Part shown: piece after piece, positions 35,690-63,572 of the stretch
Layout of the letters: each line of letters opens with the position of its first letter
How positions within the stretch are numbered: position 1 is the first letter of the stretch
Virus record (IMG/VR): IMGVR_UViG_3300017791_000124
Location: 1,174-65,173 of that record
Source: a virus
DNA length: 64,000 bases
Direction: 5' to 3' (one strand)
Position numbers and translations under genes: made by a program
The notes under the pieces: generated by a model
Told to the model about the DNA's origin: nothing
Seen by the model: the letters and a program-made list of their open reading frames with translations, nothing else
Database searches by the model: none

Positions 35690-35747
35690 TTGGAAATCTC
35701 CATTTCCGTTGAGAAGAAAAAAGCGCCGGGTTGCGGCCGGCGCGCTC
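35690..35747 (-). repeat. Short leader copy 4 (GCAA hairpin, U run, conserved RBS hairpin)
   Basis: GCGCCGGCCGCAACCCGGCGCTTTTTT...AACGGAAATGGAGATTTCCAA. Confidence 0.7.
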
Positions 35748-36638: not shown

Positions 36639-36738
36639 TGGAAATCTCCATTTCCGTTCGGGTTGGCGCCGGTTGCGACGGCGCAGTGCGGTATGGGCAC
36701 TATGGGGCGGCGCATCTAGCGCCGCCCGGTGGTGCTCA
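36639..36738 (-). repeat. Structured intergenic leader, copy 5
   Basis: Same architecture as copy 1. Confidence 0.8.
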
Positions 36739-37761: not shown

Positions 37762-37865
37762 TTGGAAATCTCCATTTCCGTTTGAGATGCGCCGGTTGCG
37801 ACGGCGCGTGTTCGCATGAACACTGTGAAGCGGCGCGTTTACGGCGTGCCGCTCGGCGGTGCTCA
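37762..37865 (-). repeat. Structured intergenic leader, copy 6
   Basis: Same architecture as copy 1. Confidence 0.8.
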
Positions 37866-38261
37866 TTAGCTTGGTGGTGCAGTCGTGCGGCACTCTTTCT
37901 CAGAACTTGCCCGGCCTCGCCTTGCGTAGTCTCGTCTCTCGCGCGGCTACCCGCCGACCGCGATCCTTGTCTATGCGACACGAACCTCGACGACTGCACC
38001 ATCAAACCAAAGGGGCGGCGCTCGTAAGCGCCGCCCGTTGTTGTGTTTAGTTTTCTCTGTTGTTGCCCTAGTCGCGCTAATGTCACGCGATTGTCTAGGA
38101 CCGTGGACCCCTCATTCAGACCGTGCGGCGTGCGGCACTTGGCTTCGTCACGCGTCACGGGCTGGCGCCCATGTTGCACCCCTAGGTGCTTGGCCTGCGG
38201 CCGTCTCGGTATCTCGATCTCAACCTCTCATCTAACCAACCAACGAGACACGTATATGGCA

Positions 38262-40965: not shown

Positions 40966-41210
40966 TATGGGTCGCCGTATGGGTCGAGCGCTCGCTGCTT
41001 GCTGGAAAAGCTAAGCTCGTCAGTAGCTTAGTAAGATCCGGTGCTCCCCTTGTAGGGAATGCCGGCGAGGTCTCAGGAGGTCTCAGGACGTCCAAGGCGG
41101 AAGCAAAAAACCCTTGTGGCATAGCGCTTTCTCGCATATTAGTCCTCCATGCGTCGCAGTGCGTCGCAGTGCGTCTCACCCGAATGGGATGAGTCAAATT
41201 ATCGGTCGAG
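40966..41210. mobile_element. Candidate attP region
   Basis: Non-coding region upstream of the integrase; arm-like TATGGGTCG x2 (40966, 40978) and TATCGGTCG (~41200); 10-bp repeats at 41068-41097 and 41146-41179. Confidence 0.55.
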
Positions 41211-41221
41211 AGGGAAGTGAG

Positions 41222-42454
41222 ATGGCAGCGATTCATAAGCTCAGCGCCGGCGCGGTCGAAGGCGAGATCAGGCGCAAGATCAAAACGCCGAAGCTCATCA
41301 ACGACGGCGGCGGGCTTTACCTGCAGGTCGCGCGCTCCGGATCGGTGTCGTGGATTCTCCGCTACCGCAGCCCGGTCACCGGCAAGAAGCGCGACATGGG
41401 ACTCGGCTCGGCGCACAAGCTGCCGATGAAGCGCGCACGCGAGGAAGCGAAGCGGTTGGGCGAGATGGTTCACGCCGGCCTCGATCCGATCGTTGAGCGC
41501 GATAAGGCTGGCAAGAACGCGGTCACCTTTCGCCAGCGCTTCGAGTACATGGACAAGCTGCAGCCGCGTTTCGGCTGGCGCGAGATGCTCGACATTCACG
41601 CGATGCCGGTGCTCGGCGACAAGCGCATCGACGCGATCACCACCGAAGACGTCGTCGGAATCATCGCCGGGCTGACCAACGCCGGCAAGCACGAGACCGC
41701 GCGCAAGCTGCAGCAACGGATTCAGGCGGTGATCCGCAGCGCGAAGAACAGCATCGATACGGTCGCGCACAAGGCGTACATCTGCAACACGCTGTCGAGC
41801 TTCAAGAAGGTGAAAAAGAACAAGGCATTTCCGTCGCTCGACTTCGAGAAGCTGCCGGCGTTCTTCCGCGAACTGCAAGCGCGTCCGGAGCTTGCCGCGC
41901 GCGCTCTTGAGTTCGTCACGCTCACCGTCTGCCGGCCGGGCTCGATCGTCGGCGTGCGATCGAAGTATGAGCGCAAGCCGCCGCTGCGCTGGACCGACAT
42001 CGACTTCAAGCGCCGGGTGTGGATCGTGCCGGCGGTGAAGACCGCCGATCAGCATGACCCGCAACCGTTCGAGATTCCGCTGAGCGATGCCGCGATGGAC
42101 GTGCTCGCGCGCGTGAAGGCGATGAAGCTGCACGACGAGATCGTCTTCGTGTCGCAGTATCACGCAGGCCCGATGGCAGTCTCGGCGATGCGTCAGCAGA
42201 CGATGCAGCGGATGCGTCCCGGTCTTACCGTCCACGGAATGCGGACGGCGTTTCGCACTTGGGTGGGCGAGAAGACCGACTTCAGCCGCGAACTGATCAA
42301 CACCGCGATGGCGCATCAGGTCTTCTCCGAGAACAAGGCGGAAGCGGCTTACAAGTCCAAGCTCAAGTTTTTCGCCAAGCGCCGCGCGATGATGGATCGC
42401 TGGGCCGACTACGTCACCGGCAAGAACAAGGTGGTTGCGCTCAAGGCTGCTTAG
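41222..42454 (+). CDS. int: Tyrosine integrase (P4-like, arm-binding N-terminal domain)
   Basis: DGGGLYLQV...SWILRY...MGLGS; catalytic R (TVCRPG), H..R (TVHGMR), H (MAH), Y (AAY); RRAMMDRWADY. Confidence 0.93.
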   Translation: MAAIHKLSAGAVEGEIRRKIKTPKLINDGGGLYLQVARSGSVSWILRYRSPVTGKKRDMGLGSAHKLPMKRAREEAKRLGEMVHAGLDPIVERDKAGKNAVTFRQRFEYMDKLQPRFGWREMLDIHAMPVLGDKRIDAITTEDVVGIIAGLTNAGKHETARKLQQRIQAVIRSAKNSIDTVAHKAYICNTLSSFKKVKKNKAFPSLDFEKLPAFFRELQARPELAARALEFVTLTVCRPGSIVGVRSKYERKPPLRWTDIDFKRRVWIVPAVKTADQHDPQPFEIPLSDAAMDVLARVKAMKLHDEIVFVSQYHAGPMAVSAMRQQTMQRMRPGLTVHGMRTAFRTWVGEKTDFSRELINTAMAHQVFSENKAEAAYKSKLKFFAKRRAMMDRWADYVTGKNKVVALKAA

Positions 42455-45648: not shown

Positions 45649-45882
45649 TCATGTCGGCGTCGCCTTCCGCTCGGCTTCGATCTCCATTGCCTTGAGCCTC
45701 TCGCGCATGTTGTTCACCAAGCCCTTCATGGTCCCTTCCATTTTCACGAACGCGTTGTGATCGGCTTCAGCTTCGGCGAGCTTGCGTTCGGTCTCGCGCG
45801 CGTGCGTCGAGACCAGCTTGAGCACGCCGTCGAGTCCGGAAAGCTCTTCGCGTAGTGCGCGGATCGGATCAAAGTCGCTCAT
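45649..45882 (-). CDS. Coiled-coil hypothetical protein
   Basis: Coupled ORF. Confidence 0.55.
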   Translation of the reverse strand: MSDFDPIRALREELSGLDGVLKLVSTHARETERKLAEAEADHNAFVKMEGTMKGLVNNMRERLKAMEIEAERKATPT

Positions 45883-46121
45883 CCTTGCTCCCCGCGACAC
45901 CAAACATCGGCCACGCGGCTCGCGCAGCATCGATCAATGAACGCGACAGCTTCTGACAAAACCCTGTCCCGCCTCTCAACCGGCACGTCGGCGAGCGCGA
46001 AGCCCATGATGCCGGCACAGGCGGAAATGACGTCGACGACGTCGGTCCCGTCGGGGATCGCGTTACTGATCGTTATCGCGAGCCGATCCATGTAGACGTC
46101 ATAGTCGCTGCGCGTCGTCAT
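45879..46121 (-). CDS. Hypothetical protein
   Basis: Coupled ORF. Confidence 0.55.
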   Translation of the reverse strand: MTTRSDYDVYMDRLAITISNAIPDGTDVVDVISACAGIMGFALADVPVERRDRVLSEAVAFIDRCCASRVADVWCRGEQG

Positions 46122-46383
46122 CGGCTTCCCCTTCCTCGAACAGCGGCGGCGCCTGTTCGCGCGCATCGATTGGCCGAACCGGCGACTGCAGCGCCGCGAG
46201 CTTCACGTGCATCACCAGCGCCTCGATCTCGCGCTTGAGCAAATTACAATTCTTGGTGTGCTCGTCGTCGTGGTCGCTGCCATCGAACGCGACCTTGCAT
46301 GTTTTGGTCGCGGTGTGCGCGATGCGCCGCGCCTCGCTGGCGATCTGGCGGTTGAGTAGATAACGGCGCAGCGGCGCGGTCAT
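46099..46383 (-). CDS. Hypothetical protein
   Basis: ORF directly downstream of guide block A. Confidence 0.55.
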   Translation of the reverse strand: MTAPLRRYLLNRQIASEARRIAHTATKTCKVAFDGSDHDDEHTKNCNLLKREIEALVMHVKLAALQSPVRPIDAREQAPPLFEEGEADDDAQRL

Positions 46384-46408
46384 GATCTATCGGCCTATCG
46401 TGAATAAA

Positions 46409-46505
46409 GTGCGCCCGGCAGGCGCATCGTGGAGTTCAGCGTTACCTTGGCCGGGCGCGGCGGTCGCACATGCTCAATGGAGTTCAATTGCAATTTGGCG
46501 ACCGC
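46409..46505 (-). ncRNA. TIGR-like stem-loop guide array, block A (2 units)
   Basis: Constant stems and TGAACTCCA loop repeat separated by exactly 9-nt variable spacers. Confidence 0.85.
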
Positions 46506-46530
46506 ATTCTGTGTGTTGGTCATCGGCCCT

Positions 46531-46947
46531 TCACCGGATAATGTGATCGCGATCGGCCGGCGGCGGGTTGTCTGTGGCTATTGTCAATCCGCGCGGCAGC
46601 AAGCCCTGACCATTATTGCGGCGCATCGCGTTGGGCGTGATCGTCGTGGGGGCGACCGTTGCGCGCACGTTGTCGAGCTTCGCGGTCGCTTCATTCAATT
46701 GTGTTTCGGCTTTCATCAGATCATCGACCAGCCGACTATTGCGAAGCTCAAGATCGCGGTTGCGTTGCTGCAGGTCCGCGATCTCGCCGTTCAGCTTGTC
46801 GATCGCCTGCTCGCGCTCTTCAGCCTCTTGCATAAGGCGCGCGCGATCTTGCGCCGTCTCGGCGATGTCGGCGTACAGTAAGTGACCTTGCTCGGTGAGC
46901 TTGTCGATCAGGATTTTCGCGCCGGCGAGCTTGTCTACCGTGATCAT
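46531..46947 (-). CDS. Coiled-coil hypothetical protein
   Basis: GGAGGA RBS; heptad pattern. Confidence 0.65.
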   Translation of the reverse strand: MITVDKLAGAKILIDKLTEQGHLLYADIAETAQDRARLMQEAEEREQAIDKLNGEIADLQQRNRDLELRNSRLVDDLMKAETQLNEATAKLDNVRATVAPTTITPNAMRRNNGQGLLPRGLTIATDNPPPADRDHIIR

Positions 46948-47062
46948 GTCTTCCTCCCTGTTGAAACGAGCGGACAGGAGAAGCGAGCGATGGTCGTCAC
47001 CACGCCTCGCCGCAAGCGCGCGTCTTGCGTCCGGTCTCCTGCCCATTCCGCCGGCTCGAAAC

Positions 47063-47545
47063 TCATTGCAGTGTTCCCCGCATTGGCAGCATGCCGACAA
47101 ACCGTCCTTCGAAGTGTGCCGGCTCCATGAATTCGAGCGGGCCGAGCTTCGGCCGGTTGCCGTTGCCCGGGCGCGTGATGACGCGCTGCGCGGTCAGCAT
47201 GCCGGTCTCGTCTTCGGCCTGATACATCAGCGCTTCAATGCGGTTCGGATGATCGCTGAGCCCGTGCCGCGCGATCTCGTGCAGTTCGTCGTCGCTGAAG
47301 CCGGCTGGCGCGTAAAGCTGCCAAGCCTCGTTGACAAACACATAGCGCACCACGTCGTTAAGTTCGAAGTAAGCGCGCATCAGCAGCGCGGCGATGTCCT
47401 TGTCGAACGGCGGTGATGGCACGATTTTGTGCTCGCCGGATTCCGTGATGCTGTGCCACATCGGCAGAATCTCGCCGGCGTTGTCGAATATCTGCGTGAC
47501 CTTCGCGTCGGTCTTGATGATGAAATCGCGCAGTGTGTCGATCAT
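47063..47545 (-). CDS. Hypothetical protein coupled to the TasA-like gene
   Basis: ATGA overlap with the 47542 stop; YVFVNEAW...HPNRIE...GRF. Confidence 0.7.
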   Translation of the reverse strand: MIDTLRDFIIKTDAKVTQIFDNAGEILPMWHSITESGEHKIVPSPPFDKDIAALLMRAYFELNDVVRYVFVNEAWQLYAPAGFSDDELHEIARHGLSDHPNRIEALMYQAEDETGMLTAQRVITRPGNGNRPKLGPLEFMEPAHFEGRFVGMLPMRGTLQ

Positions 47546-48396
47546 CGTGGCGGCGGCGAAATTCTGTCGCCGTCCTCTTTCTTGTTTCGCGTAGGCTTCG
47601 CCGTCGTGGCGCAGCGATCCCACTCATTCCACAAGTCGAGCAAAAACTTTTTCATCGTAACGCGTAGCGCGTCCTTGCGACGGTGTCCGTCGCTCCAGTC
47701 GGGATGAGTTTCCTTGGTGTGCTCGCGCCGCTCGGCGTAGATTGCACCGTAGGGCCCGTTCGGCTTGCCCTCGCCGCTTTCGCTTTTCTTCGCGCCGATC
47801 CATTGGGCGTTGACCAACCATGTCGCGATCTGCGCCATCAGCGCATAGCGCTCACCGGAAAAGGGATTCTCAGTCCACTCTTCGGCTGACAACGCACGCG
47901 GTCGCCACGTCTGGCGCTTCCACGTGCTGCCAGCGTGGCCGTCATAGGGCGCGAAGCCGAGCCGCTTCCAAACCTTCGCGGGATACGCGTAGTCGGAGAG
48001 ATTGCCGGTCTCGGCGATGATGGTGGCGAGCCCCAGCGCGCCCGCGCCACGGATCGCTTCAACATACGGATACACTGGCAATTCCTTCGCGGCACGCTCC
48101 ATCGCTCTTTCGGCGGCAGCGCGCTTCTCGTCGGCCGGCTTACGGGCCTCGTCGCACATGCGGACCTCGTCGGCGAACTGGTGATCGGCGCCGGCACGGA
48201 TTCGCTCGATCAGCGCCTTGACCTCGCGGTTGGCTTTCTCTCGATCCTTCTCATCGGCGTTCGGATTCCACTCTGTTGCATTGATGCGGATAAAACTTTC
48301 GAGCGATCGGTCGAGCTTCTGTTGCACTTTCATCGCGAAGCGGCGCTGGCGATGCAGTCCGCGAATCAAAGCGATGGTCTCGGCGAGATCAGTCAT
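47542..48396 (-). CDS. tasA: TasA-like RNA-binding protein (IS110 C-terminal/Nop domain, no nuclease domain)
   Basis: Coiled coil then IRGAGALGLATIIAETGNLSDY..PAKVWKRLGFAP (IS110/Nop-type motif) and YGAIYAERR...H...ALRVTMKKFLLDLW; 284 aa with no RuvC/DEDD or HNH; begins just downstream of guide block B. Confidence 0.82.
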   Translation of the reverse strand: MTDLAETIALIRGLHRQRRFAMKVQQKLDRSLESFIRINATEWNPNADEKDREKANREVKALIERIRAGADHQFADEVRMCDEARKPADEKRAAAERAMERAAKELPVYPYVEAIRGAGALGLATIIAETGNLSDYAYPAKVWKRLGFAPYDGHAGSTWKRQTWRPRALSAEEWTENPFSGERYALMAQIATWLVNAQWIGAKKSESGEGKPNGPYGAIYAERREHTKETHPDWSDGHRRKDALRVTMKKFLLDLWNEWDRCATTAKPTRNKKEDGDRISPPPR

Positions 48397-48421
48397 GGAG
48401 TCATGCTCCGTTGGTGAAAGA

Positions 48422-48633
48422 GAGAGCGCCCGGCACATCGCGAATGGAGTTCAGAAGGTCCATGGCCGGGCGCAGCGGTCGCATTGGCGGCTTGGAGTTC
48501 ACAGCCGATCTGGCGACCGCGTTCGAGATGAGAGCGCCCGGCAGCGGCGCGCTGGAGTTCATGCGTTGCTTGGCCGGGCGCGGCGGTCGCATCGCAGCAT
48601 TGGAGTTCATCAGCCATCGGGCGACCGCGTTCG
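48422..48633 (-). ncRNA. TIGR-like stem-loop guide array, block B (4 units)
   Basis: Eight 9-nt spacers between conserved CCA/TG-bounded repeats. Confidence 0.88.
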
Positions 48634-48636
48634 TGA

Positions 48637-49323
48637 TCATTGCCGAGCATCCTCGATCGGCTCGGCTTTGTGGGCGCTGGCGATCAAGTCGTGCGCAACT
48701 CTTATGCTCCCATCGCGGATCACTTCGGCGGCTTTGATCTTCGCCGCCTTGAGCTTGGCTTCGACGACGTTCGGCGGGACTGCGTCTCGAACCTTGGTGA
48801 AGGGCTCGGACGCGACGCAATGGTCATTCAGCATCAGCAGTAAGATCGACTCGACGGCATCGTCATAGCCGCGTTGCAGAAAAGATGTTGCAGTGCTTGC
48901 CTGACTCTCGGCAATCGCGCGGAGTTCGTGGATATGGATGTCGCCGAGCCGGCCTGCGCCGCGAATCCGCCGCTCGAATATCTCGTGTCGGATCACCGTC
49001 CCGGCTTTGACGGTGCCGGCCTTCTGCGCCGCGCTCGGTGTGCCGAGCTTGACACGCCGATGCGGACCTTCACGGCGGCGACCTATCGGCTTCGGCGACT
49101 TCGACGGCTTCGGTGAGAGTGTCGGCGCCTCTGCCGTTTCTGGCGTCTCCGTCTTCAGCGGCAGCCGATCGAGATAGTCGGCCGCGAGCGCAATCAGTAA
49201 CGGTCGCTTGGCATTCTCCATAAGCATGCTCGCGAACTTCGGCGCGGCCTTCGTCACGTTGCCGTCGGTCGACTTCAGAATTTCGATGGCGGCAGTGCGG
49301 AGCTTATCGGTCGTGGTGTTCAT
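48637..49323 (-). CDS. Hypothetical protein between guide blocks B and C (candidate TIGR accessory)
   Basis: GGAGGA RBS before ATG 49323; fills the gap between two arrays. Confidence 0.7.
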   Translation of the reverse strand: MNTTTDKLRTAAIEILKSTDGNVTKAAPKFASMLMENAKRPLLIALAADYLDRLPLKTETPETAEAPTLSPKPSKSPKPIGRRREGPHRRVKLGTPSAAQKAGTVKAGTVIRHEIFERRIRGAGRLGDIHIHELRAIAESQASTATSFLQRGYDDAVESILLLMLNDHCVASEPFTKVRDAVPPNVVEAKLKAAKIKAAEVIRDGSIRVAHDLIASAHKAEPIEDARQ

Positions 49324-49348
49324 CAAGACGTTCCTCCGTTTCAAATTA

Positions 49349-49877
49349 GTGCGCCCGGCATCAGCTTGTGGGAGTTCATGAGCCTCTTGGCCGGGCGCGG
49401 CGGTCGCAGCGCGAGTGTGGAGTTCATCGGTGCCACGGCGACCGCGTTCGAGAAGAGAGCGCCCGGCAACTGACATGCGGAGTTCATCACCCTCTTGGCC
49501 GGGCGCAGCGGTCGCAAACGATGGATGGAGTTCACGTCACCATTGGCGACCGCGTTCGAATGGAGAGCGCCCGGCACTCGATTTTTGGAGTTCAGACCAA
49601 GGATGGCCGGGCGCGGCGGTCGCACTCCACGTTCGGAGTTCAGATGACGATTGGCGACCGCGTTCGAGATGAGAGCGCCCGGCATGGCTTCGTTGGAGTT
49701 CAGCCCATCCAAGGCCGGGCGCGGCGGTCGCAGCGCGATTGTGGAGTTCACTGTGTTGCTGGCGACCGCGTTCGAGATGAGAGCGCCCGGCAAGCGAGCT
49801 TTGGAGTTCACGGGTAGGATGGCCGGGCGCAGCGGTCGCAACGCCAGCATGGAGTTCATGTGTTCATTAGCGACCGC
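49349..49877 (-). ncRNA. TIGR-like stem-loop guide array, block C (10 units, 108-nt two-unit period)
   Basis: Twenty distinct 9-nt spacers; alternating GCGGTCG/CGACCGC and GCGCCCGG/CCGGGCGC stems. Confidence 0.9.
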
Positions 49878-49888
49878 ATTTCGATTGA

Positions 49889-50275
49889 TCATCGGCGGCA
49901 TCTCCATGTCCGTCCGTAAAACACCTTCCGCATTTTGTGCCGCGCGCAGATGTCGAGCTTCACGACCTTGGTGCGCAAACGCCGGTGCCGGGACGGCTGC
50001 AGGGCTGGGGGGCTCACTGCCGCCCCGGGCACCGCGTCCACTGCGCCGCTCTCTCGTGCGTTAGCGACGTAGCGAACCTGTGTGGCCGGCGGCATGTCAT
50101 AGAGCGGACGCCACCGCTGGCGGAACGTGTTGTCGTCTTCGCGCCGCGCTGTGATGCCTTCGGTCGCGACCGCCACCGGCGCGATCGGCGGCGAGGCTTT
50201 CCTAGGTCCGGCCACACCCGCGATCGCGAACGAGATCACAGGGATTGCGGCGAGCATGAAAGACCAGCGAACCAT
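49889..50275 (-). CDS. Secreted/membrane-anchored hypothetical protein
   Basis: N-terminal hydrophobic segment; C-terminal DICARHKMRKV...TWRCRR. Confidence 0.6.
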   Translation of the reverse strand: MVRWSFMLAAIPVISFAIAGVAGPRKASPPIAPVAVATEGITARREDDNTFRQRWRPLYDMPPATQVRYVANARESGAVDAVPGAAVSPPALQPSRHRRLRTKVVKLDICARHKMRKVFYGRTWRCRR

Positions 50276-50285
50276 GGCGTGCCTT

Positions 50286-50489
50286 TCACTTGCGCGGCAG
50301 ACCTGCGACGTATTGATCGATGCTCACTTGCGTGACACGCGTCATGCGCGCGCCGCCCTTCACGATTTCAAGCTTGCCGGTATCGATCAGCCGATAGACT
50401 TGCGCGCGACTGACACTAAGCTGTCGCGCCGCATCCTTCACTGTGCGCAGCTTGACGTCGCCGCCATCGTCATCGCTGCGCTTGTTCAT
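50286..50489 (-). CDS. Excisionase-like HTH (MerR/HTH_17) protein
   Basis: TVKDAARQLSVSRAQVYRLIDTGKL. Confidence 0.85.
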   Translation of the reverse strand: MNKRSDDDGGDVKLRTVKDAARQLSVSRAQVYRLIDTGKLEIVKGGARMTRVTQVSIDQYVAGLPRK

Positions 50490-51544
50490 GGGCCACCCCC
50501 GTCACCGTCCCAGCCCCGGCGCCACGCGTCGACCTCTGCCTCGCGACCGGCCTCACGATATTCGCCCGGGACGGCGGTGCGCTTCATGCCGGTGCGCTTC
50601 GCTTCCTTGCCGCGCTCCCAAGCGGTGTCGAGCCTGACCTTCGGGATGGCCGCCGGCTTGGCCGCTGTCGTCACTTCGCCGGTGGCGGCGTCGACGGTCT
50701 CGGTCTGCTCGCGCAGATGCGGCTCGGCACCACCGGGAATGTCGGGCGTCGGCTCGGGCTCGCCGTCATCGGCGAACTGATCGAGTGCTGCGGCAGCGCC
50801 GCGCGGACGGCCGAGCTTCTTGGGCGGCGGTGCCGCCACGTAGCCGGCTGGCGCGACGTCCTCGCCTTCATCCTCGCGGCTGATCAGTTCGTCGAGCCCG
50901 TGCGGCATCGGCAACAGCTTGCACAGCCGCTTCAGCGCGGTCTTCTTGCGCATCTCATCCGTCCACTGCGCCCACGGCGAATCCTCACCGCGCGCGCGAG
51001 AGACATTGCGAATGCGCGTCATCTCCGTTTCATTGATTGTGGAGACGAAGAACCCTCCGCCCTTGGTGATGGCTGCCGCGTAAGTTTCGATCACCTTGCC
51101 GTTGCCCGGGCCCGGGCGATGCAGAAAGTGCTGGCCGTGCTCGTCGAGCCAGATGTCGAACTCGCGATCGTCGTCGCGGTGCAGGCCGGCGCCGATCCAT
51201 TTATACTCGCCCGACTGCTCAAAGCGGTCGATGAGCCCGCGATACATGGGTTGCCACTTGGCCTTGCCCTTGTACGGCACGATCACGCCCTGCCGGCGAT
51301 CGGGCAACAGACCGTCGTTGGTGGCTTCGAGCAGCGCCTGCCAGAGCGATTGGAACGACACGTCGCTGATAAGCTCGGGCTGCATCATCGCGGCGGTGAC
51401 TGCCGCACGAATGAAGCGATCCGCGCTGATGCCGGACCCTTCGAGCGCATGTTCAAGCTCGGCACGCCGCTGCAAGAGCCGATCGCGCAACACGGCGATC
51501 GCCGGCACCGCCTTGGTCTCACGCTCAATCACTTGAGTGCTCAT
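50486..51544 (-). CDS. recT: RecT-family single-strand annealing protein
   Basis: GLLPD..QGVIVPY...WQPMYRGLI, SPWAQWTDEMRKKTALKRLCKLLP. Confidence 0.9.
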   Translation of the reverse strand: MSTQVIERETKAVPAIAVLRDRLLQRRAELEHALEGSGISADRFIRAAVTAAMMQPELISDVSFQSLWQALLEATNDGLLPDRRQGVIVPYKGKAKWQPMYRGLIDRFEQSGEYKWIGAGLHRDDDREFDIWLDEHGQHFLHRPGPGNGKVIETYAAAITKGGGFFVSTINETEMTRIRNVSRARGEDSPWAQWTDEMRKKTALKRLCKLLPMPHGLDELISREDEGEDVAPAGYVAAPPPKKLGRPRGAAAALDQFADDGEPEPTPDIPGGAEPHLREQTETVDAATGEVTTAAKPAAIPKVRLDTAWERGKEAKRTGMKRTAVPGEYREAGREAEVDAWRRGWDGDGGGP

Positions 51545-51566
51545 GCTTCATTTCCCTTCTGAATAA

Positions 51567-51772
51567 GTGCGCCCGGCATCGTTGCAGTGGAGTTCATGGC
51601 CTGTTTGGCCGGGCGCGGCGGTCGCATACGGGTCGTGGAGTTCACGCCGCCATTGGCGACCGCGTTGGTGGATAGGTGCGCCCGGCAAACCTGAGATGGA
51701 GTTCATGTATCCATGGGCCGGGCGCGGCGGTCGCATCCTCGCAATGGAGGTCACGAGATCAATGGCGACCGC
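51567..51772 (-). ncRNA. TIGR-like stem-loop guide array, block D (4 units)
   Basis: Same repeat grammar; intergenic between yqaJ and recT. Confidence 0.88.
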
Positions 51773-52065
51773 ATTCGATTCCATTTGGCGCGGAGTCGCG
51801 CCTTGTCGTTCCGATTGGTGATTGTTTGTGCCGCACGCGCGAGGCGCGCCGCGCCTATTGCCGGGCGGTTGACTGGCGATTGAACCCCGGGGGGAAAGAT
51901 CGCCCCCGCCTATTTCCCCGTGAGGGGTGTTGTATTCAGCGGGCCGCCCGACAAGGGAGGCCCCGGAGTTCAGGTAGTACCAAGCACTGCACCAGTCACG
52001 ATACACGCTTGGAGGATGGAGGTTCATATACTCACCTTGGGTGTGTCAAGTGTGATCCTCGTCGG

Positions 52066-53007
52066 TCATGGCGCGCGCTCATGCTCATTGCGTGCCACGC
52101 GCAGCACGCGGAAACTGGATGCCGGCACGGTGTATTCGCTGCGGTGCTGAAGCTTCCAAGTGACCCGCCAGCCGGGCACCAGCGCGCCTTCGGCATCGCC
52201 GATCTTGGCCTTGATCTCGTCTTCGGCTGCCTTCAGCCGCTTCTGCACGTCCTTCTCGGTGTCCTTCAAAATCTGCCGGCGTTCGAGCAAGTCGCCGATG
52301 GCATTATCGGTCGAGAGATCGATCACCTTGCCGGGAGTCTCATTCGGAAACATCAGCGCGATGAGATCACCGTCGCGCTCGAAGTCGATCACCGGCTGAT
52401 CGCCGGCATCGAACTTGAGCCAGAACGCGGCGGCGGCGGTGCGCAGGCGCAACTCGGCCTTGCGGTTGCGCTCGACCGGGAAGACTCGCGCTTCGAATGT
52501 GAAGTCGCCGATGATCAGCGCGCCGAGCGCGCCCCACGTGCAGTCGGGGATCAGCATCATTTCGGTCGCAAGCTGCAACAGATAGCCGAGCGGCGGTGTG
52601 CCGTCCGGCCATTTCCTTTTGAAGACGGGTTGCGCCACGGTCTTGATCTGCAGCGAGCCGACGCCGTCGCGCGCGGGATCGATCACGAGAAAGTCCGGCG
52701 TGCAGGCGATGCGCGCCACTGGGTCAACATACTGGTGCTCACAGCGAGAGATGCGCCACGTCGGGTGCAGCTTTTGGACTTCGTCCATCGCGTCATCTTC
52801 CAGCGCGTTGCCGCGCCGGATCAGTGGGCTGTCGGGATCGACGTCGCTTTCGAGCCCGCGCATCTCGGCGGTGAGCCGGGCCAAGGTCTTATAATCGTGC
52901 AGGCCGAAGACGCAGGCGATGTCGGAGGCATTCAGGTAGTGGCGGCGGCGTTCGAGCCAGTCGCTGCGGTCTCCGATCGGATGAGCTTCCACTCCGGTGG
53001 CTGTCAT
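52066..53007 (-). CDS. YqaJ/lambda-exonuclease family recombination nuclease
   Basis: WLERRRHYLNASD, RGNALE, CTPDF, LQIKT, YLLQLATEM. Confidence 0.9.
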   Translation of the reverse strand: MTATGVEAHPIGDRSDWLERRRHYLNASDIACVFGLHDYKTLARLTAEMRGLESDVDPDSPLIRRGNALEDDAMDEVQKLHPTWRISRCEHQYVDPVARIACTPDFLVIDPARDGVGSLQIKTVAQPVFKRKWPDGTPPLGYLLQLATEMMLIPDCTWGALGALIIGDFTFEARVFPVERNRKAELRLRTAAAAFWLKFDAGDQPVIDFERDGDLIALMFPNETPGKVIDLSTDNAIGDLLERRQILKDTEKDVQKRLKAAEDEIKAKIGDAEGALVPGWRVTWKLQHRSEYTVPASSFRVLRVARNEHERAP

Positions 53008-53062
53008 CTCGTGTGACCCTTAAACGTGTTGACGTCGGGCTGGCGATTTCGTTCCCGGTCCT

Positions 53063-53151
53063 ATGGAGAAAAATGAGACGCACTGAGAAGCACTGAGACG
53101 CATAGAGACGCATGGAGACAATATCTGTTCCTATTTCCTGTGCGTCTCCAT
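53063..53151. repeat. 10-bp-period direct repeats (GAGACGCAct) in the divergent control region
   Basis: TGAGACGCAC TGAGAAGCAC TGAGACGCAT AGAGACGCAT GGAGACAA, plus an inverted copy at 53141-53151. Confidence 0.75.
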
Positions 53152-53441
53152 GGACTTATATCGACGTACCGAGACCCTGCGCCGTGTCTGATCGATCGTC
53201 AAGCGGTCCGCGATTCGGCGCGCGCGGCGTCATCTGAATTTCATATTGCCGGCTCGTGGCTTATCGGTCGCCAAAATTTTTTCTTGCGTGGCGCGCTGCC
53301 CGGTGGCTTCCTCGCATGTCTTCCACGAGCCCGCACTGCTTTGCTGCCAAGAGCCTTTCGCGCTCTGCGTTTTTTCCGTGCGGTGCTCGCAACAAAACCA
53401 ATTGCAGGGGTATTCCCTGAGTTGGGCAGGCGGAAACCCCG

Positions 53442-53729
53442 ATGCCGCAACAACATTGTCCACATTGCCACAAACCCCTGCAGCCGACACGCTACGGTGT
53501 GGGCTTTGGCCCGCTCGCGATCCGCATCATCGACGCGATTGAGACCGCCGGCCCCGCCGGCATCAGCAGTACTGACCTATTTCGCGCGGCCTATCGCGAG
53601 CGCAACGGCGCCACGGTCGAGCGGCTGAAAAGCTACATCGGCTCGATCAACGCCGCGCTCGCCGGCAAGGGCTTCGCCATCCGCATCGATCGCGCTTCCG
53701 ATCGCGTCATCATGAGGCGACGCGCATGA
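53442..53729 (+). CDS. Zn-ribbon/winged-helix DNA-binding protein
   Basis: CPHC...; LKSYIGSINAAL..KGFAIR. Confidence 0.65.
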   Translation: MPQQHCPHCHKPLQPTRYGVGFGPLAIRIIDAIETAGPAGISSTDLFRAAYRERNGATVERLKSYIGSINAALAGKGFAIRIDRASDRVIMRRRA

Positions 53730-56493: not shown

Positions 56494-57023
56494 GCGGCGC
56501 GATCGCCATCAAGCTGACTGAAGGCCAGATCAGCATGGCGAGCCACATCGGCGTCATGCGCCGCATCAGCAACTTGCGGCGCAGTACGCCGCCGAAGCAT
56601 GGCGCGGGCAATGGCGAAGGAAGCTGGGAGATCGACATCAACGGTTGCTGCGCCGAGCTTGCGGTCGCGTGCTATCTCAATCTGTTTTGGTGCGGCTCGC
56701 TCAACGACTATGCGGCGCGTGATGTTGGCGGCTTGGTCGACGTGCGCTCGACCATGAAGCCGGATCGCCGGCTGCCGTTGCACCCTGATGATCTCGACAG
56801 CGTGCCGTTCGTGCTCGCATGGCCGCGCCCGCCGCTGTTCTCTGTCTATGATCTTGTCGGCTGGACACTCGCGCGTGACGGCAAGCGACAAGAGTTCTGG
56901 TGTGATCCGACGAACAACGGTCGCCCGGCGTTTTTCGTGCCGAAGAATGTCCTGCATCCGATGCCGGCGCTGCGCGAGTGGACCGAGCGCATGCGATCGC
57001 TCACAGAGGAGTCGTCGCTGTGA
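56490..57023 (+). CDS. Hypothetical protein, PD-(D/E)xK-like fold
   Basis: GCCAELAVA...DV...VDVRST. Confidence 0.6.
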   Translation: MSGAIAIKLTEGQISMASHIGVMRRISNLRRSTPPKHGAGNGEGSWEIDINGCCAELAVACYLNLFWCGSLNDYAARDVGGLVDVRSTMKPDRRLPLHPDDLDSVPFVLAWPRPPLFSVYDLVGWTLARDGKRQEFWCDPTNNGRPAFFVPKNVLHPMPALREWTERMRSLTEESSL

Positions 57024-57640
57024 GCGTGTTTGCACCATTGGCGCCGCCCTACGGCATCGTGGTCGCCGATCCGCCGTGGCGCTTCGCGACGTGGTCGCAG
57101 AAAAATCAGGACGTCGGCAAGGGCGCGCTCGCGCATTACTCGCTGATGTCACTACGCGACATCATGGCGTTGCCGGTGGCCGATCTCATGGGCCGGCATG
57201 GCTTTGCGTTTATCTGGACGACCGGATGGGCCATGGCGACGGGCCAAGCGCGTGACGTCGCGCGTGCGTGGCGGCTTGAGCCGAAGACGGAGTCGGTGTG
57301 GGTCAAGCGCACGATCAACGGCAAGGTGCGCGTCGGCACCGGCTACATCGCGCGATCGATGCACGAGCCGATCCTGATCTGCACCAAAGGCAGTCCCGGC
57401 CGGCTCGGCTTTCCATCCATGTTCGACGGACTGGCGCGCGAGCACTCACGCAAGCCGGATGAATTCTATGCGCTGCTCAAGGCGCGCACGCCGGACGCGC
57501 GGCGCTGCGATCTGTTCTCTGGCGGTGTCACGCGTGACGGATTCGATGGATGGGGCGAGCGGCATGGCAAGCGCTGTGTTGATTGCGCTTTGGTCAGCAA
57601 ACCTGACCTTGAATTTGACTTGTCGGAAATGATGGGATGA
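57020..57640 (+). CDS. MT-A70-family N6-adenine methyltransferase
   Basis: IVVADPPW, VWVK, GTGYIARSMHE, REHSRKPDEFY, DLFS. Confidence 0.9.
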   Translation: MSVFAPLAPPYGIVVADPPWRFATWSQKNQDVGKGALAHYSLMSLRDIMALPVADLMGRHGFAFIWTTGWAMATGQARDVARAWRLEPKTESVWVKRTINGKVRVGTGYIARSMHEPILICTKGSPGRLGFPSMFDGLAREHSRKPDEFYALLKARTPDARRCDLFSGGVTRDGFDGWGERHGKRCVDCALVSKPDLEFDLSEMMG

Positions 57641-57738
57641 GCATAGTATCCGATCGATGCCGTTTTTCGCGGCGCGCGCTATTGGCGCAGGCTCCTCGAC
57701 GAGCGGCAGTGTCATGCCTGTTCAATGGGGAGTTTCCT

Positions 57739-60333
57739 ATGTCTGATCAATATCTTCCGCACAAGCCGAGCGAACTGTCGAGCGCCGAATGGGAATACAT
57801 CTTGGCGCGCGACTTGCGCCATTGCGCGCGTTATCGTGAGTGCAGCCGCACTGGCCAGACCGCATTCTGCTCCGATCAAATCGACATCGATCATGCGCAG
57901 CCGAAAGAACTCGGCGGTGATGATACGATCGGCAACATGCGGCTACTGTGCTTCAGCTACAATCGCGGTCGCATCAGTGAGCCACTGGAGAAGTGGGCCG
58001 AACAAAATTATTGGGACAGGCACGATCAGCTTGTTGTCGGTAAGCTGCGGGAAATCCAACGGTTGGTTGGTTGGGATTCGATTGGCGACATTGAACATCA
58101 GATCGAAGTGCCCGGCTATTTCCGCCGCGCCCTACTTGGCACGATCACGCTATTGCCGGGTGCGACCGGGATCGGCAAATCACTCTTGATGCAAGCAGCG
58201 CTGTTTCGTTTCAACAAGTTGATCGGTCTCGGCTTCCCGCGTGTGAAGTCGGTGTTGTGGCTCACAAACGACACGACGTTGCGCGATATGGCCGCGACCG
58301 AGATCGAGACGGAAGCATTTGAAGTTGTGAAGATGATCGATCGTCCACCCGTCGTTCACAAGGCGCGGGCGTTTGACGATCTGTTGCGCGGCCCAATGGG
58401 TGCTGATGTCACGGTCTCGACCGTACAGGCATTATGGAAGCGTGAGGACGGTGACGGCGATCAGATGCGCAGCGATGGTGAGAGGCTCGCGGCGCTGAAT
58501 CACTTCGACACGATTGTCTTCGACGAATGCGATTGGGGCAGCTATCAAGTTCATGGGATTTCTGACGTTGGTCGTCATGCGCTGCAATTCGCACTGACTG
58601 CGTCGCCGTTGACGTTCGATACGACGGATGATCCCAAGCGCGCCGAAGAGTTTATCAAGCGCTTTGTGTTGATCGCACCGGAAGCGATTGCTGACTATGA
58701 GCGGGCGCTCAAGTTCGATGCTTGTCTCAAACTGCTGGAGAAAGCGACAGTTGGGCCAAAGCACAAGGGATTTGATTTTCTCAAAAGCGGGCATGTCAAG
58801 ACCGAGAACGACCAGAACATGCCGCGCGACCATGCGCTCTATCGTGGTCTGATCCTGCAGGCTGTCGTCGAGGCCGACAATCTTGAAACGCGGATGAAAG
58901 AGACGCATCCTGATGAATATTACTCGCCGCACATCATGGTGCGAATGGATACGATCCAAGAATTGCTGGCGATGAAGACTGATTTGGAGCAGCATCTTTC
59001 GAACTTATGCGCCGAAGGCACACTTGTGAATGATGGCTGGGGCGTCTCGGCTATCTTTATGGGCCGGCAGATGGCGAAGATGCCAGCCGAAGAGCGTGAT
59101 CTATCGAGGCGCCGGGGCGATCAGTGGCTTCATCCATTCATGCTGGCGAAGAACCATCACGGTCGCGCCGTGCGCGGATCGAAGCGCATTCTTCTCATGT
59201 GCAACATTGCGCTGCGCGGCATCAACAACTGGGTAATCAACACCATCGTCGACTGCGCGGTTAATGAATCAGTTGGCACAATTATTCAATTCGATTGGGG
59301 CAGACCGCTTCGATTGCCGATGCATTTGGCGCACTGGACAGGCGACAAGGCGACCGATGATGAGCGCGAGTTCGTCACCGTGAAGGTGTGGCTGCCGCAG
59401 GTTGAGGGATTCGAAACCAAGCGCGATGCTGTCGAGCGTGCGCGGGCGTTCATTGTCAACATGCTGCCGCTACTGCGCGACGCCGGATTTCTGACTTGGA
59501 ACGATCTGATCGAAGGTAAGCGTCCAAGCGATACTGACGTTGTGATCGATCCGAGCAATCGGCCGCTTACACAAGGCGAGAAGTTCGCGATCCAAGGGGC
59601 GCTGGCGCAGGCCGCCGAGACCAATGCACTGAGTAAGGAAAATGTTGAGTCAATCGTTGCGCCGCTTTTCCCAGATGTTGGCCAGCGTGTGCGCAAGCGC
59701 AGCATCGAATATGCCGCCAAGCTACTCGATCCGGTATTCCGCGATCATGAGACACTCAACACACAAATGGTCAAGGAAGTGGTGTTCAATCCGGAAAACG
59801 TAATGAACCGATTGCGCCCGCAGGAAGTCTACGATCCGGAAGACCTGATCCGCTGGATTCGCCACGATCCGAGATATAAGGGCTACACCGATCGCTACAT
59901 CCAACGGATCAACGACAGCGATGAGATCGTCATTCACGCTGTGTCGGATGCACTGCGTAAGATGCAGATCGCGAATTATCGGCCGCCGGCGCGCACCTAT
60001 CGGCTGCATGGCCACAAGGGTGACCCGGGCGTGCTGATCGAGATCGCAGGAGAACTGAAAGAGCATCTCAGAGGCGCAAGGCAACTGCCGGATAATGATG
60101 GTGAAGTGAACAAGGAGATCGTCGGTGCAGCCAAAATGCTATTCGACATCACCGACGCCAGCGAAGGCGGCCCGATGGATCATCCCGCATATCACATTGC
60201 TATGCTCTGCAAGCATCGGCGCAAGCTGCAGGCAATGGCGCGCGGGCGACTGATCACCAAGGGATTACTGGGGCAAGCGATGAAGAGGTTCGCAAGCAAT
60301 GAGCACGCCGACGCGAACGCAAGTTGCGAATAA
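57739..60333 (+). CDS. HNH endonuclease fused to an SF2 (restriction-type) helicase
   Basis: DIDHAQPKELGG....NMRLLC..YN; GATGIGKS; IVFDECD; LTAS; QFDWGRPLR; lower GC than flanks. Confidence 0.75.
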   Translation: MSDQYLPHKPSELSSAEWEYILARDLRHCARYRECSRTGQTAFCSDQIDIDHAQPKELGGDDTIGNMRLLCFSYNRGRISEPLEKWAEQNYWDRHDQLVVGKLREIQRLVGWDSIGDIEHQIEVPGYFRRALLGTITLLPGATGIGKSLLMQAALFRFNKLIGLGFPRVKSVLWLTNDTTLRDMAATEIETEAFEVVKMIDRPPVVHKARAFDDLLRGPMGADVTVSTVQALWKREDGDGDQMRSDGERLAALNHFDTIVFDECDWGSYQVHGISDVGRHALQFALTASPLTFDTTDDPKRAEEFIKRFVLIAPEAIADYERALKFDACLKLLEKATVGPKHKGFDFLKSGHVKTENDQNMPRDHALYRGLILQAVVEADNLETRMKETHPDEYYSPHIMVRMDTIQELLAMKTDLEQHLSNLCAEGTLVNDGWGVSAIFMGRQMAKMPAEERDLSRRRGDQWLHPFMLAKNHHGRAVRGSKRILLMCNIALRGINNWVINTIVDCAVNESVGTIIQFDWGRPLRLPMHLAHWTGDKATDDEREFVTVKVWLPQVEGFETKRDAVERARAFIVNMLPLLRDAGFLTWNDLIEGKRPSDTDVVIDPSNRPLTQGEKFAIQGALAQAAETNALSKENVESIVAPLFPDVGQRVRKRSIEYAAKLLDPVFRDHETLNTQMVKEVVFNPENVMNRLRPQEVYDPEDLIRWIRHDPRYKGYTDRYIQRINDSDEIVIHAVSDALRKMQIANYRPPARTYRLHGHKGDPGVLIEIAGELKEHLRGARQLPDNDGEVNKEIVGAAKMLFDITDASEGGPMDHPAYHIAMLCKHRRKLQAMARGRLITKGLLGQAMKRFASNEHADANASCE

Positions 60334-62670: not shown

Positions 62671-63572
62671 AAGTCCGCTCGGAAGCTGCAGCACCTTGGA
62701 CGAAATGGTATCGCTGGCGCCGCTGGAAACAGATGCGCGCGCACCAACTGGCGTTCGAGCCGCTGTGCCGCCTGTGCAAGCGCAACGGCAAGATCACGCC
62801 GGCGAACATCGTCGACCACGTCGAGCGTCACTTCGGCGATCCGGAAAAATTCTGGTGCGGCGAACTGCAGAGCGTGTGCCGCTACTGCCACGAAGTGCGG
62901 AAAAAATTCATCGAGTCACGCGGCTACGATCGCGCCGTCGGTCCCGACGGATGGCCGCTCGATCCGAACCATCCCGCCAACCTGCCGCGCGACGTCTTCC
63001 GCAGATTCGGCTTTTCCATCCCGCACAATCTGCGCGCTTCGGCGATCCCGGTTTTTCTCGTCTGCGGCCCACCGGCTTCGGGAAAAACAACGTGGGTCAA
63101 CACGCGCAAGGCGTTCGGCGACACCGTCATTTCGCTCGACGACTGCAAGATCGCTGTCGGCGGTCGAGCTTGGGACACCGATCGCAGGATTTTCCGTCGT
63201 GCCATGGCTTATCGCGACAGCATGCTGCGGATGCTGGCGCTGAAAACACAGGGTCGAGCTTTCGTTGTGATCGGAGGACCAACACAGGCAGAGCGTGATG
63301 CGTGGTGTAAGGCTCTCGGTGTCGAGTCCGACAACGTCGTGGTGCTCGACACTCCCGCCGACGAGTGCATTCGCCGACTCGGCGCTGATCCTGCTCGCGC
63401 TCTGGCTCGTGCGGATTTGGAAAATGGCGTGAAGCGTTGGCACTTCCTGTACAGGAAGGGTGCGCCCGGCAGCGCTTCACTGGAGATCACTGGCACTATG
63501 GCCGAGCGCACAGCGATTGCACCTGAGACGTGGAGTTCAGTTGTATCATGGCGATCGCCGCAAATAGGCTAA
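62667..63572 (+). CDS. Packaging-type HNH endonuclease fused to a P-loop (AAA_33-like) kinase
   Basis: EPLCRLC...VDHV..H.GD...QSVCRYCH; VCGPPASGKTT. Confidence 0.82.
   Translation: MKVRSEAAAPWTKWYRWRRWKQMRAHQLAFEPLCRLCKRNGKITPANIVDHVERHFGDPEKFWCGELQSVCRYCHEVRKKFIESRGYDRAVGPDGWPLDPNHPANLPRDVFRRFGFSIPHNLRASAIPVFLVCGPPASGKTTWVNTRKAFGDTVISLDDCKIAVGGRAWDTDRRIFRRAMAYRDSMLRMLALKTQGRAFVVIGGPTQAERDAWCKALGVESDNVVVLDTPADECIRRLGADPARALARADLENGVKRWHFLYRKGAPGSASLEITGTMAERTAIAPETWSSVVSWRSPQIG
63460..63557 (-). ncRNA. Orphan TIGR-like guide block E (2 units), antisense within the HNH gene 3' end
   Basis: GCGCCCGGCA-9nt-TGGAGATCA-9nt-TGGCCGAGCGC...GCGATTGCA-9nt-TGGAGTTCA-9nt-TGGCGATCGC. Confidence 0.75.

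Follow-up and report, generated by a model that had tools for sequence, protein, structure and literature searches.

What do the hairpins repeated through an early operon of a temperate phage encode, and at which DNA are their variable segments aimed? The locus in question lies on the minus strand of IMG/VR virus record IMGVR_UViG_3300017791_000124 (65,173 bases), of which positions 1,174 to 65,173 were analysed; this stretch of 64,000 nucleotides (nt) is called the window here. An initial annotation, made from the letters alone, had read positions 46409 to 51772 as a phage-borne TIGR-Tas system, in which a nuclease-less Nop-domain protein of the TasA class is guided by RNAs that each carry two 9-nt spacers. 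Our best overall explanation, with a probability of roughly 0.8, is that the locus is a stem-loop TIGR-TasA system in the early RecET-type operon of a temperate phage, and that it represses DNA sites, including alleles of sibling phages.

Reading and parsing of the minus strand gave 22 hairpin units, 20 in four blocks within 46411-51773 and 2 degenerate ones at 63462-63559, exactly as the initial annotation had counted them. All 22 fit one layout of 8-nt arm, C-box, 9 nt, 9-nt loop, 9 nt, TG and 8-nt arm; as RNA, the unit is a 48-nt hairpin in which an arm of 7-8 bp and its complement enclose, in this order, CCA, a 9-nt variable segment, the loop UGAACUCCA, a second 9-nt variable segment and UG. 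The arms form 7 or 8 of 8 pairs in 22/22 units, the outer box is CCA in 17/22 and the inner box in 19/22, and the loop reads TGAACTCCA in 17/22. TG stands 3' of both spacers in every unit (44/44), in columns that were left unconstrained in the relaxed scan; that scan returned 27 matches, of which 5 (starts 49343, 49298, 48949, 48707 and 47309), without CC box, TG or stem, were discarded. The claim of exact 9-nt, all-different spacers in near-invariant repeats likewise held: the 44 spacers are all 9 nt long and all distinct (minimum Hamming distance 1). The units are paired, with two alternating stems, GCGGTCG/CGACCGC and then GCGCCCGG/CCGGGCGC, that abut with a linker of 0-1 nt, and 12-13 nt separate one pair from the next. 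The 22 units are therefore 11 abutting pairs, here called twins, with a pair period of 108 nt and two hairpins per twin in RNAfold; this rhythm of 48 and then 60 nt is maintained throughout the subclade. The arrays are distributed as follows.

51569..51773, minus strand: TIGR array block 1, 4 units (2 twins), between the YqaJ-type exonuclease gene and recT, from scan and fold.
49351..49878, minus strand: TIGR array block 2, 10 units (5 twins), upstream of the gene for a 228-aa companion protein, from scan and fold.
48426..48629, minus strand: TIGR array block 3, 4 units (2 twins), immediately upstream of tasA.
46411..46506, minus strand: TIGR array block 4, 2 units (1 twin), from scan and fold.
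63462..63559, minus strand: outlying twin in which the stems are degenerate (7 and 8 of 8 pairs) and the loops read TGAACTCCA and TGATCTCCA.

A distance of 11.7 kb separates the outlying twin from the main cluster, and the twin overlaps the 3' end of open reading frame (ORF) 62667-63572 in antisense orientation. The last 40 codons of this plus-strand ORF are antisense to the twin, and its family match (small terminase/HNH, AAA_33) stops at residue 258; the predicted ORF may run on too far, or else the twin does lie antisense within it. On the other flank, a 290-nt non-coding leader with several G+C-rich hairpins lies between the exonuclease gene and block 1 (51780-52065, minus strand). Scans of 45800-53600 found no sigma-70-like promoters, with 1.5 expected.

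Could such repeats be something other than guides, namely hairpins like repetitive extragenic palindromes (REP), terminator hairpins, or a translated protein of 36-aa repeats? ORFs do cross three of the blocks (49341-49907, 51548-52027 and 48393-48650), the pair period is 108 nt and each spacer is three codons long; ORF 49341-49907 reads as a 36-aa repeat NAVA-xxx-VNS-xxx-LRPPRPA-xxx-LNS-xxx-MPGALIS. However, the frame in which the unit is read varies among the three ORFs and even changes within block 1. Because the frames differ in this way, we take the open frames to be by-products of stop-free scaffolds. The same-frame coupling of G+C content that translation would leave is absent (z 0.3-0.4, against 6-8 for the coding control in its own geometry). 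No run of T follows the stems, and terminator-like sites in 45800-53600 number 8 against 7.6 expected. Finally, such repeats would leave unexplained both the strict geometry of boxes and spacers and the strand-specific link to tasA, so that this explanation has practically no chance of being right. A CRISPR-Cas array was also considered and rejected: each 48-nt hairpin carries two 9-nt spacers, instead of an array of 25-36-nt repeats and comparably sized spacers, and there was no cas-like match among the ORFs scanned, in agreement with the initial annotation.

The protein that would use these guides is encoded among the arrays.

47542..48396, minus strand: tasA, encoding a 284-aa nuclease-less Tas protein with a coiled coil from residue 4, a Nop C-terminal domain and a disordered but conserved loop at residues 150-169.

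GGAG lies 9 nt upstream of its start codon, and the Nop-type motif KVWKRLGFAP that had been pointed out earlier is present in the translation. A profile built from 33 of 368 homologues was compared with 177,635 PDB sequences; TaTasR (9MTY) ranked first (E 8.8e-5) and TasH second (E 0.18). The AlphaFold model has a mean predicted local distance difference test score (pLDDT) of 85.3 and a predicted template modelling score (pTM) of 0.80, and starts with the coiled coil at residue 4. In Foldseek, which the initial annotation had proposed for this protein, ranks 1-10 were all TasR or TasH chains (1.4e-5 to 3.1e-4), with IS621 and ISCro4 behind. An independent all-against-all comparison with VIA-align gave Z 15.3 for TasH (199 residues aligned, 3.1 A), Z 14.8 for TasR (181, 2.5 A) and Z 12.3 for ISCro4; the next match was an unrelated helical one at Z 8.1. 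The structural matches begin past the nuclease domains of TasH (residue 66) and TasR (residue 112), and homologues start at the same place as the window protein. Because the matches begin past these nuclease domains and the protein itself begins with a coiled coil, the 284-aa protein is TasA. A Nop fold without RuvC/DEDD or HNH domain, as originally claimed, is thus borne out by profile, model, Foldseek and VIA-align alike. Four residues are invariant in the 33-homologue profile (H231, W234, H238 and R245) and one is near-invariant (K249). Their spacing equals that of the box-C contacts H292, W295, H299, R306 and K310 of PlTasA, as judged by comparing residue numbers rather than by alignment; these contacts are given in the part of the structural study of PlTasA drawn on here (Guan 2026, 10.64898/2026.08.11.744272). 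Since the C-terminal tail of TasA contains neither Tyr nor His, a host RNase probably carries out the processing of the guide RNAs (tigRNAs), by analogy with other Tas proteins.

The same comparisons bear on the idea of an IS110-family transposase in decay, with hairpins left over from its bridge RNA or from the element ends. PHROG 4285 and 2199 are labelled 'transposase', the former matches TasA at 3.9e-12, a few homologues carry PF02371, and ISCro4 reaches the Z of 12.3 given above. Yet the ISCro4 match covers only ISCro4 residues 124-314, the protein has no DEDD/RuvC domain and its model starts with the coiled coil, and Tas structures outrank IS110 in both fold searches. The window holds 22 units with hypervariable 9+9-nt inserts in five places, not one two-loop RNA; no single upstream two-loop RNA was found, and Rfam at the gathering threshold and a tRNA scan each gave 0 matches in the window. 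Moreover, gene and arrays are conserved together in 25/25 related phage loci. That the locus is an IS110 remnant, which the initial annotation had also denied, is therefore exceedingly improbable.

The related loci consist of 1 contig from a metagenome-assembled genome (MAG) and 24 IMG/VR contigs, with TasA relatives at 49-73% identity. Each of the 25 has 5-32 units on the tas strand, with only 5 units in total on the other strand, and 18/20 further metagenome loci also contain units. When the boxes alone were searched (CCA-N9-TG-N4-CCA-N9-TG) in the window's contig plus the 25 related loci (478 kb), 336 matches fell on the tas strand and 6 on the opposite strand. Among these 336, 307 have at least 7/8 stem pairs, compared with 1/336 when the arm was slid by 3. 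Because the box-only pattern is so unequally divided between the strands (336 vs 6), a chance origin of the units is excluded. Covariation was assessed on an alignment of 121 units that differ in their stems, selected from 397, together with one row that was out of register. Compensatory changes occurred in 8/9 stem pairs (378 cells vs 116 +/- 9 in shuffled alignments; reached in 0/500 shuffles; slid controls at most 100). This set was preselected for at least 7/8 pairs, which makes its percentage of paired positions circular, and the unselected test is the box-only pattern. The pair between boxes C and D and the G:C pair of the loop are invariant in the covariation set. The earlier claim that boxes surround the two 9-nt spacers as in TIGR-Tas is confirmed in box C, box D and a covarying stem. 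In more distant relatives the hairpins are single and the stems all different. In 401 genomes of the MAG's family there are 3 TasA homologues at E 1e-10 or better, and when IMG/VR was scanned again with the window protein, the set of loci did not grow. One bacterial genome of that family (G304:C74, loci L027 and L029) has a distant tasA locus (E 2.5e-34) in two identical copies, which lie on the same contig at a distance of 63 kb and hold 6 units each.

The array anatomy, the protein fold, the conservation of the units and the covariation of the stem were all seen directly in this material, and, judged from sequence, every defining feature of stem-loop TIGR-TasA that can be tested computationally is present. 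The assignment to the nuclease-less TasA class of TIGR-Tas made in the initial annotation is thus upheld by fold, boxes, covarying stem and the linkage of arrays to tas.

The scaffolds are fixed, and their contents are not. The 397 units of the first 26 records hold 346 distinct guide pairs, and sharing is confined to near-identical loci. In the block upstream of tasA, compared among four relatives (83-93% protein identity where measurable), 684/720 scaffold columns are identical (95%), against 129/432 spacer columns (30%), which is about random. Every window guide differs from every other guide at more than 4 of 18 positions. Even close relatives have entirely different guides, in scaffolds that stay fixed.

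To what would these guides bind? According to the oligonucleotide table of Faure 2025 (PMC12045711), the target strand of a TaTasR-type system is spacer A followed by the reverse complement of spacer B, that is, a contiguous 18-bp site. No window guide matched its own 65-kb contig in this geometry at 2 mismatches or fewer; at 3 there were 4 matches, where the reversed arrangement gave 1 and mispaired spacers predicted 2.9. The 346 guides against the 26 loci (478 kb) gave no exact match, and 24 vs 16 at 2 mismatches or fewer. We then used all 463 guides of the clade (window units, loci L001-L049 and G402-G411) and a target set of 889 kb in 43 records, including ten whole sibling contigs, with 17 duplicate loci left out. 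At 2 mismatches the contiguous 18-bp site gave 47 matches in orientation Y, 40 in orientation X, 47 for mispaired spacers and 29 for the same-strand arrangement.

Three features of the spacers themselves pointed to a different spacing. First, the spacers resemble coding DNA: their 3-nt periodicity in G+C has z 4.7 for A and 4.3 for B, compared with 5.1 for coding 9-mers of the same phages. Second, the phases of A and B are coupled in a way that fits a gap of -1 or +2 between them, not 0 (z 3.4 for 330 guides, 1.6 with equal effect size for 112 new guides and 4.1 for all 463), whereas the coding control gives z 6-8 at gap 0. Third, the final base of A could form a Watson-Crick pair with the final base of B in 216/463 guides (47%), compared with 24.3% after shuffling (z 11.4); the count is 208/442 after similar guides were collapsed and 9/22 in the window alone. 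Eight other pairs of A/B positions show |z| of at most 1.0, and complementarity of A and B at other registers is weak (best z 2.4 at i+j=10). Because of these signals we tried an overlapped 17-bp site, consisting of A and then the reverse complement of B from its second base. It gave 22 matches at 1 mismatch or fewer in the 889 kb, compared with 5 for mispaired spacers. A gap of +2, which the periodicity also allows, gave no match at this threshold, and with 16 equalised positions no gap stands out. In a first gap scan, an apparent excess at -1 (5 and 45 matches) was largely a counting artefact of the doubled position and was set aside. On balance, a 17-bp site with a shared central base pair seems to fit this clade better than the contiguous 18 bp, although Faure 2025 (PMC12045711) states in its accessible part that the sites of the two spacers are 'unlikely to overlap'. 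Covariation between spacers A and B goes unmentioned in the part of Xu 2026 (10.64898/2026.09.09.750476) available here. Across the clade, G+C content also varies along both spacers: it is raised at positions 6-8 (0.59-0.70), lowered at positions 1 and 9 (0.45-0.54) and 0.56 overall, against 0.60 for the loci, a profile that may relate to the published 'seed' positions.

Phase coupling and excess matches are seen for the opposite-strand arrangement of A and B and are absent for the same-strand one, and this bears on whether the complex might guide action on RNA, in the manner of box C/D small nucleolar ribonucleoproteins, rather than on DNA. The Nop fold is indeed common to Nop5 and Prp31 (Prp31 Z 7.0 over 173 residues; Nop5 E 0.22), and the spacers look coding. 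The units, however, have no kink-turn boxes RUGAUGA/CUGA, only CCA and UG, and no fibrillarin or L7Ae partner was found among the ORFs scanned, a subset of those on the contig. In Faure 2025 (PMC12045711), TasR has no action on RNA. We consider action on RNA very improbable.

Among the 22 matches to the 17-bp site, 12 fall in tasA genes of sibling phages, which make up only 30.7 of the 889 kb, and these come from four guides. Within tasA, 4 guides match, compared with a mean of 0.00-0.08 in 12 mispaired shuffles and 0-1 in 11 other combinations of geometry and orientation. The signal emerges only within tasA and at 1 mismatch or fewer of 17; about 5 of the matches outside tasA are expected as noise. 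All tasA matches are on the antisense strand. All four matching guides lie 57 nt or less from their own tasA, so that 4/102 adjacent guides match vs 0/355 others (Fisher p 0.0024). One of them belongs to the window.

48426..48473, minus strand: single guide unit, spacer A TGGACCTTC and spacer B TTCGCGATG, 30 nt before the tasA start.
48323..48339, minus strand: the counterpart site in the window's own tasA, codons 20-25, with 2 mismatches to guide 48473-48426, both at synonymous third-codon positions.

The predicted site of this guide, tasA codons 20-25 (FAMKVQ), is present without mismatch in the tasA of L031 and with 1 mismatch in L034, L035, L036, L037 and L047. The other three guides, those of G409, L033 and L003, match sibling tasA genes at 0-1 mismatch and their own tasA at 6, 3 and 2 mismatches, respectively. 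Two further cases involve neighbouring genes: in L007 the last unit before recT matches the recT of G407 with 1 mismatch, and in L004 a unit before the gene for a 161-aa protein matches that gene both in L004 and in the window (47342-47358), with 1 mismatch each. A guide on the L021 contig (G404), 2.2 kb from its own tasA, has a contiguous 18-bp match to the antisense strand of L031 tasA (around residue 200), in which the sole mismatch is the last base of spacer B.

A number of results weigh against this reading of the system and its sites. Credible matches were found for only 4 (perhaps 5-7) of the 463 guides, about 1%, and the other 21 window guides have no credible match in the 889 kb. Codon-model scores show no global strand bias of the guides (t -0.9). 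For the contiguous 18-bp site the full guide and target sets gave no exact match and, at 1 mismatch, 3 matches in orientation Y, 2 in X, 3 for mispaired spacers and 1 for the same-strand arrangement; for exact 16-mers the 17-bp geometry is indistinguishable from noise (3 matches vs 0-2). The end-base complementarity is limited to 47% of guides (69% with G:U), could be an RNA-RNA contact at the dyad of the complex, and stands beside the statement in the accessible part of Faure 2025 (PMC12045711) that spacers A and B show 'no obvious covariation' in the arrays examined there. CTT, corresponding to the CUU boundary motif, occurs 3' of only 5/11 twins; in the part of Xu 2026 (10.64898/2026.09.09.750476) used here, CUU is a frequent feature of processing sites at the stem base. 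As to the protein, the window TasA has no match in Pfam-A at E 0.01 or better and none in PADLOC.

The matches allow a different role for the same system: the spacers could have been copied from ancestral phage DNA next to the arrays, and the guides could exert feedback control on the phage's own early operon. Matching guides adjoin the very gene family that they match, in the L007 and L004 cases as well as for tasA; spacer B of guide 48473-48426 is identical at 9/9 positions to the window's own tasA, the L004 guide matches its own 161-aa gene at 1 mismatch, and TasA represses in reporter assays, as described in the part of Xu 2026 (10.64898/2026.09.09.750476) seen. Against such control, the phages' own tasA alleles are matched worse (2, 6, 3 and 2 mismatches) than those of siblings (0-1). 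The two changes in the window's allele are synonymous, which would be expected of escape from a guide and not of an operator under maintenance; the closest relatives carry a wholly different guide in the corresponding place; and scans of the window's own contig for the contiguous site and for the 17-bp site gave no window guide at 2 mismatches or fewer. Control of the own operon is unlikely.

We return to repression of sibling alleles, for which the following mechanism is proposed, largely from published work on other Tas proteins. The operon transcript would be cut into hairpin tigRNAs, and a TasA dimer would hold each of them by its CCA and UG boxes. The two 9-nt spacers would pair with opposite strands of one DNA site and, since TasA has no nuclease, the complex would stay on the DNA as a roadblock that represses transcription, in line with the structural work on PlTasA (Guan 2026, 10.64898/2026.08.11.744272). 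Sites of 17 bp are predicted, within coding sequences of related phages; at the centre of each, a single base pair would be read by the final bases of both spacers. Some guides would be aimed at sibling alleles of the neighbouring gene (tasA, recT or the 161-aa gene) while sparing the own allele, and a guide and the resistant own allele would travel together, like a killer-and-antidote pair. The system would then be an RNA-guided weapon or immunity between sibling phages, and the rapid replacement of guides in fixed scaffolds could be a mark of this conflict. Taken as a whole, the proposal that TIGR-TasA is a programmable sibling-phage immunity, with 17-bp sites in rival alleles of the adjacent gene and with synonymous changes protecting the own allele, has in our estimate a little less than an even chance of being correct. 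The initial annotation had suggested, purely by inference, a use against competitors or host genes; the matches in sibling tasA genes lend support to the competitor half of that suggestion and to that half only. If the proposal is true, sibling immunity would explain the complete turnover of guides in fixed scaffolds, nuclease-free TasA would have its biological role in conflict between related phages, targets of TIGR systems should be predicted with the 17-bp overlapped site, and the sites described here would be the first natural targets for such systems. In a full-text literature search, no natural target of TIGR spacers was reported, targets were called unknown, and no work on TIGR-Tas in superinfection was found; the accessible parts of the published TIGR work describe the natural targets as not yet determinable.

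The setting of the arrays is an operon of the minus strand. Its order is YqaJ-type exonuclease gene, [4 units], recT, helix-turn-helix (HTH) gene, 128-aa gene, [10 units] and 228-aa gene, followed by [4 units], the 284-aa tasA, the 161-aa gene, a 138-aa coiled-coil gene and [2 units]. The assigned genes of this operon and the integrase of the phage are listed below.

52066..53007, minus strand: YqaJ/RecE-type exonuclease gene, same operon; in 12/25 related loci.
50486..51544, minus strand: recT, same operon, with arrays on both sides; in 11/25 related loci.
50286..50489, minus strand: gene for an HTH_17 excisionase-like DNA-binding protein, same operon.
48637..49323, minus strand: gene for the 228-aa companion, between arrays; it adjoins tasA in 13/25 related loci.
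47063..47548, minus strand: 161-aa gene, downstream of tasA, with the site at 47342-47358 matched by the L004 guide at 1 mismatch.
41114..42454, plus strand: tyrosine integrase gene, a temperate marker; 42132-42148 is matched at 1 mismatch by an L042 guide, where noise amounts to about 5 such matches per 889 kb.

Arrays are interleaved with the exonuclease gene and recT in the window, L007 and L010-L013, and one may ask if the twin hairpin is itself a working two-guide RNA that loads two TasA dimers and bridges two DNA sites, for looping or for steering recombination by RecT and the exonuclease. The arrangement of all 22 units as abutting pairs of alternating stems, with the longer linker only between pairs, and the rhythm of 48 and then 60 nt kept across the subclade would suit such an RNA. 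But alternating stems are also the simplest guard against mispairing of neighbouring identical arms at a linker of 0-1 nt, more distant relatives manage with single hairpins of differing stems, and synteny among related phages is not independent evidence. In addition, the matched sites involve single guides whose twin partners have no match nearby, and TasA has no recombinase domain. We regard a bridging twin as quite improbable.

The companion protein has an invariant Arg-rich stretch, GRRREGxHRR, at residues 81-90 (R82, R84, G86 and H88-R90), in a low-confidence linker between two helical parts; this composition suggests nucleic-acid binding. It has no match in Pfam, PHROG, PADLOC or PDB sequences and no usable Atlas match. 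Its model (pLDDT 79, pTM 0.50) gave no Foldseek match at E 0.001 or better, and the best VIA match, Z 6.6 over 45 residues, covers helical hairpins only, without a recognisable fold. The source record carries sheath, baseplate, portal, capsid-protease and integrase genes and has no terminal repeats. A look-up of sequencing runs listed no RNA run for this stretch and one soil DNA run that contains a small share of it. The element thus looks, from its gene content, to be a temperate, contractile-tailed, myovirus-like phage, and the tailed-phage genes and integrase agree with the temperate lifestyle given in the initial annotation. Elsewhere in the window, a 759-aa ORF (4931-7210, plus strand) matches the families of both head maturation protease and major head protein, as a fused prohead protease-capsid gene. 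Three genes at 34232-37893 (minus strand) encode a MoxR-like AAA ATPase (AAA_5), an unknown protein of 335 aa and a DUF2201 metallopeptidase-like protein with VWA, with no PADLOC match. The 898-aa product of 57637-60333 (plus strand) combines an HNH motif at its N terminus with a ResIII helicase domain, and its gene adjoins a DNA methyltransferase gene (56978-57640).

How does the system compare with those already known? In Faure 2025 (PMC12045711), CCA is called 'box C' and UG 'box D', the variable spacers that they flank are 8-12 nt long, and arrays of the stem-loop type are described together with TasA. The nearest likeness is PlTasA, from a Peromyscus leucopus gut contig (PMC12045711; 10.64898/2026.08.11.744272): as far as these sources were available, it too is a nuclease-less TasA with hairpins that carry two 9-nt spacers between boxes C and D, with arrays split into sub-arrays around the gene, and with the same His/Trp/His/Arg/Lys spacing by residue numbers, not alignment. 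In contrast to PlTasA as described there, the window has near-invariant stems of two types that alternate in abutting pairs, arrays dispersed among several genes of an early phage operon, the gene for a 228-aa companion between the arrays, and spacer ends that covary. MbTasA and BlTasA (Xu 2026, 10.64898/2026.09.09.750476) share with it, in the part of that source used, stem-loop tigRNAs with a loop of mostly 9 nt and a TasA without a Y/H processing loop; RNA-guided transcriptional repression by MbTasA was demonstrated there by reporter, reverse transcription quantitative PCR and electrophoretic mobility shift assay. They differ in that CUU follows only 5/11 twins in the window, and in that the same part of the source reports no natural targets, whereas here four guides of the clade match sibling tasA.

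TaTasR and SpTasH (PDB 9MTY and 9W04) have the same Nop core fold (Z 14.8 and 15.3) and the same CCA and UG boxes, and the TaTasR loop UGAAACCCA is almost identical to the window loop UG-NNNN-CCA. Unlike the window system, they include a nuclease (RuvC or HNH), have short edge repeats where the window has stems, and use guides of 36 nt; their site, in the part of PMC12045711 consulted, is contiguous over 18 bp, whereas the overlapped 17 bp appear to fit better in the window's clade. IS110/IS621 elements (PDB 8WT6, 8WT9 and 9T56) have a homologous RNA-binding C-terminal domain (Z 12.3) and split-spacer guide loops in stem-loops. The window system, in contrast, has no DEDD catalytic domain or transposon ends, and has many hypervariable units instead of one RNA. 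The side-by-side hairpins of the window nonetheless recall the two loops of the IS110 bridge RNA.

Mini-CRISPR arrays borne by viruses are used in conflicts between related archaeal viruses. There too a virus carries guides that match close relatives and not itself; interference is by a host-supplied nuclease, whereas the effector here is phage-encoded and nuclease-free.

The system itself is a genuine, well-preserved member of a published family, and is not new as a kind because the stem-loop type with TasA is already in Faure 2025 (PMC12045711) and repression by TasA in Xu 2026 (10.64898/2026.09.09.750476), in the parts available. What is new or stands out in this clade is the turnover of guides, the covariation of spacer ends, the coding-like spacers, and candidate natural targets in rival tasA and neighbouring early genes.

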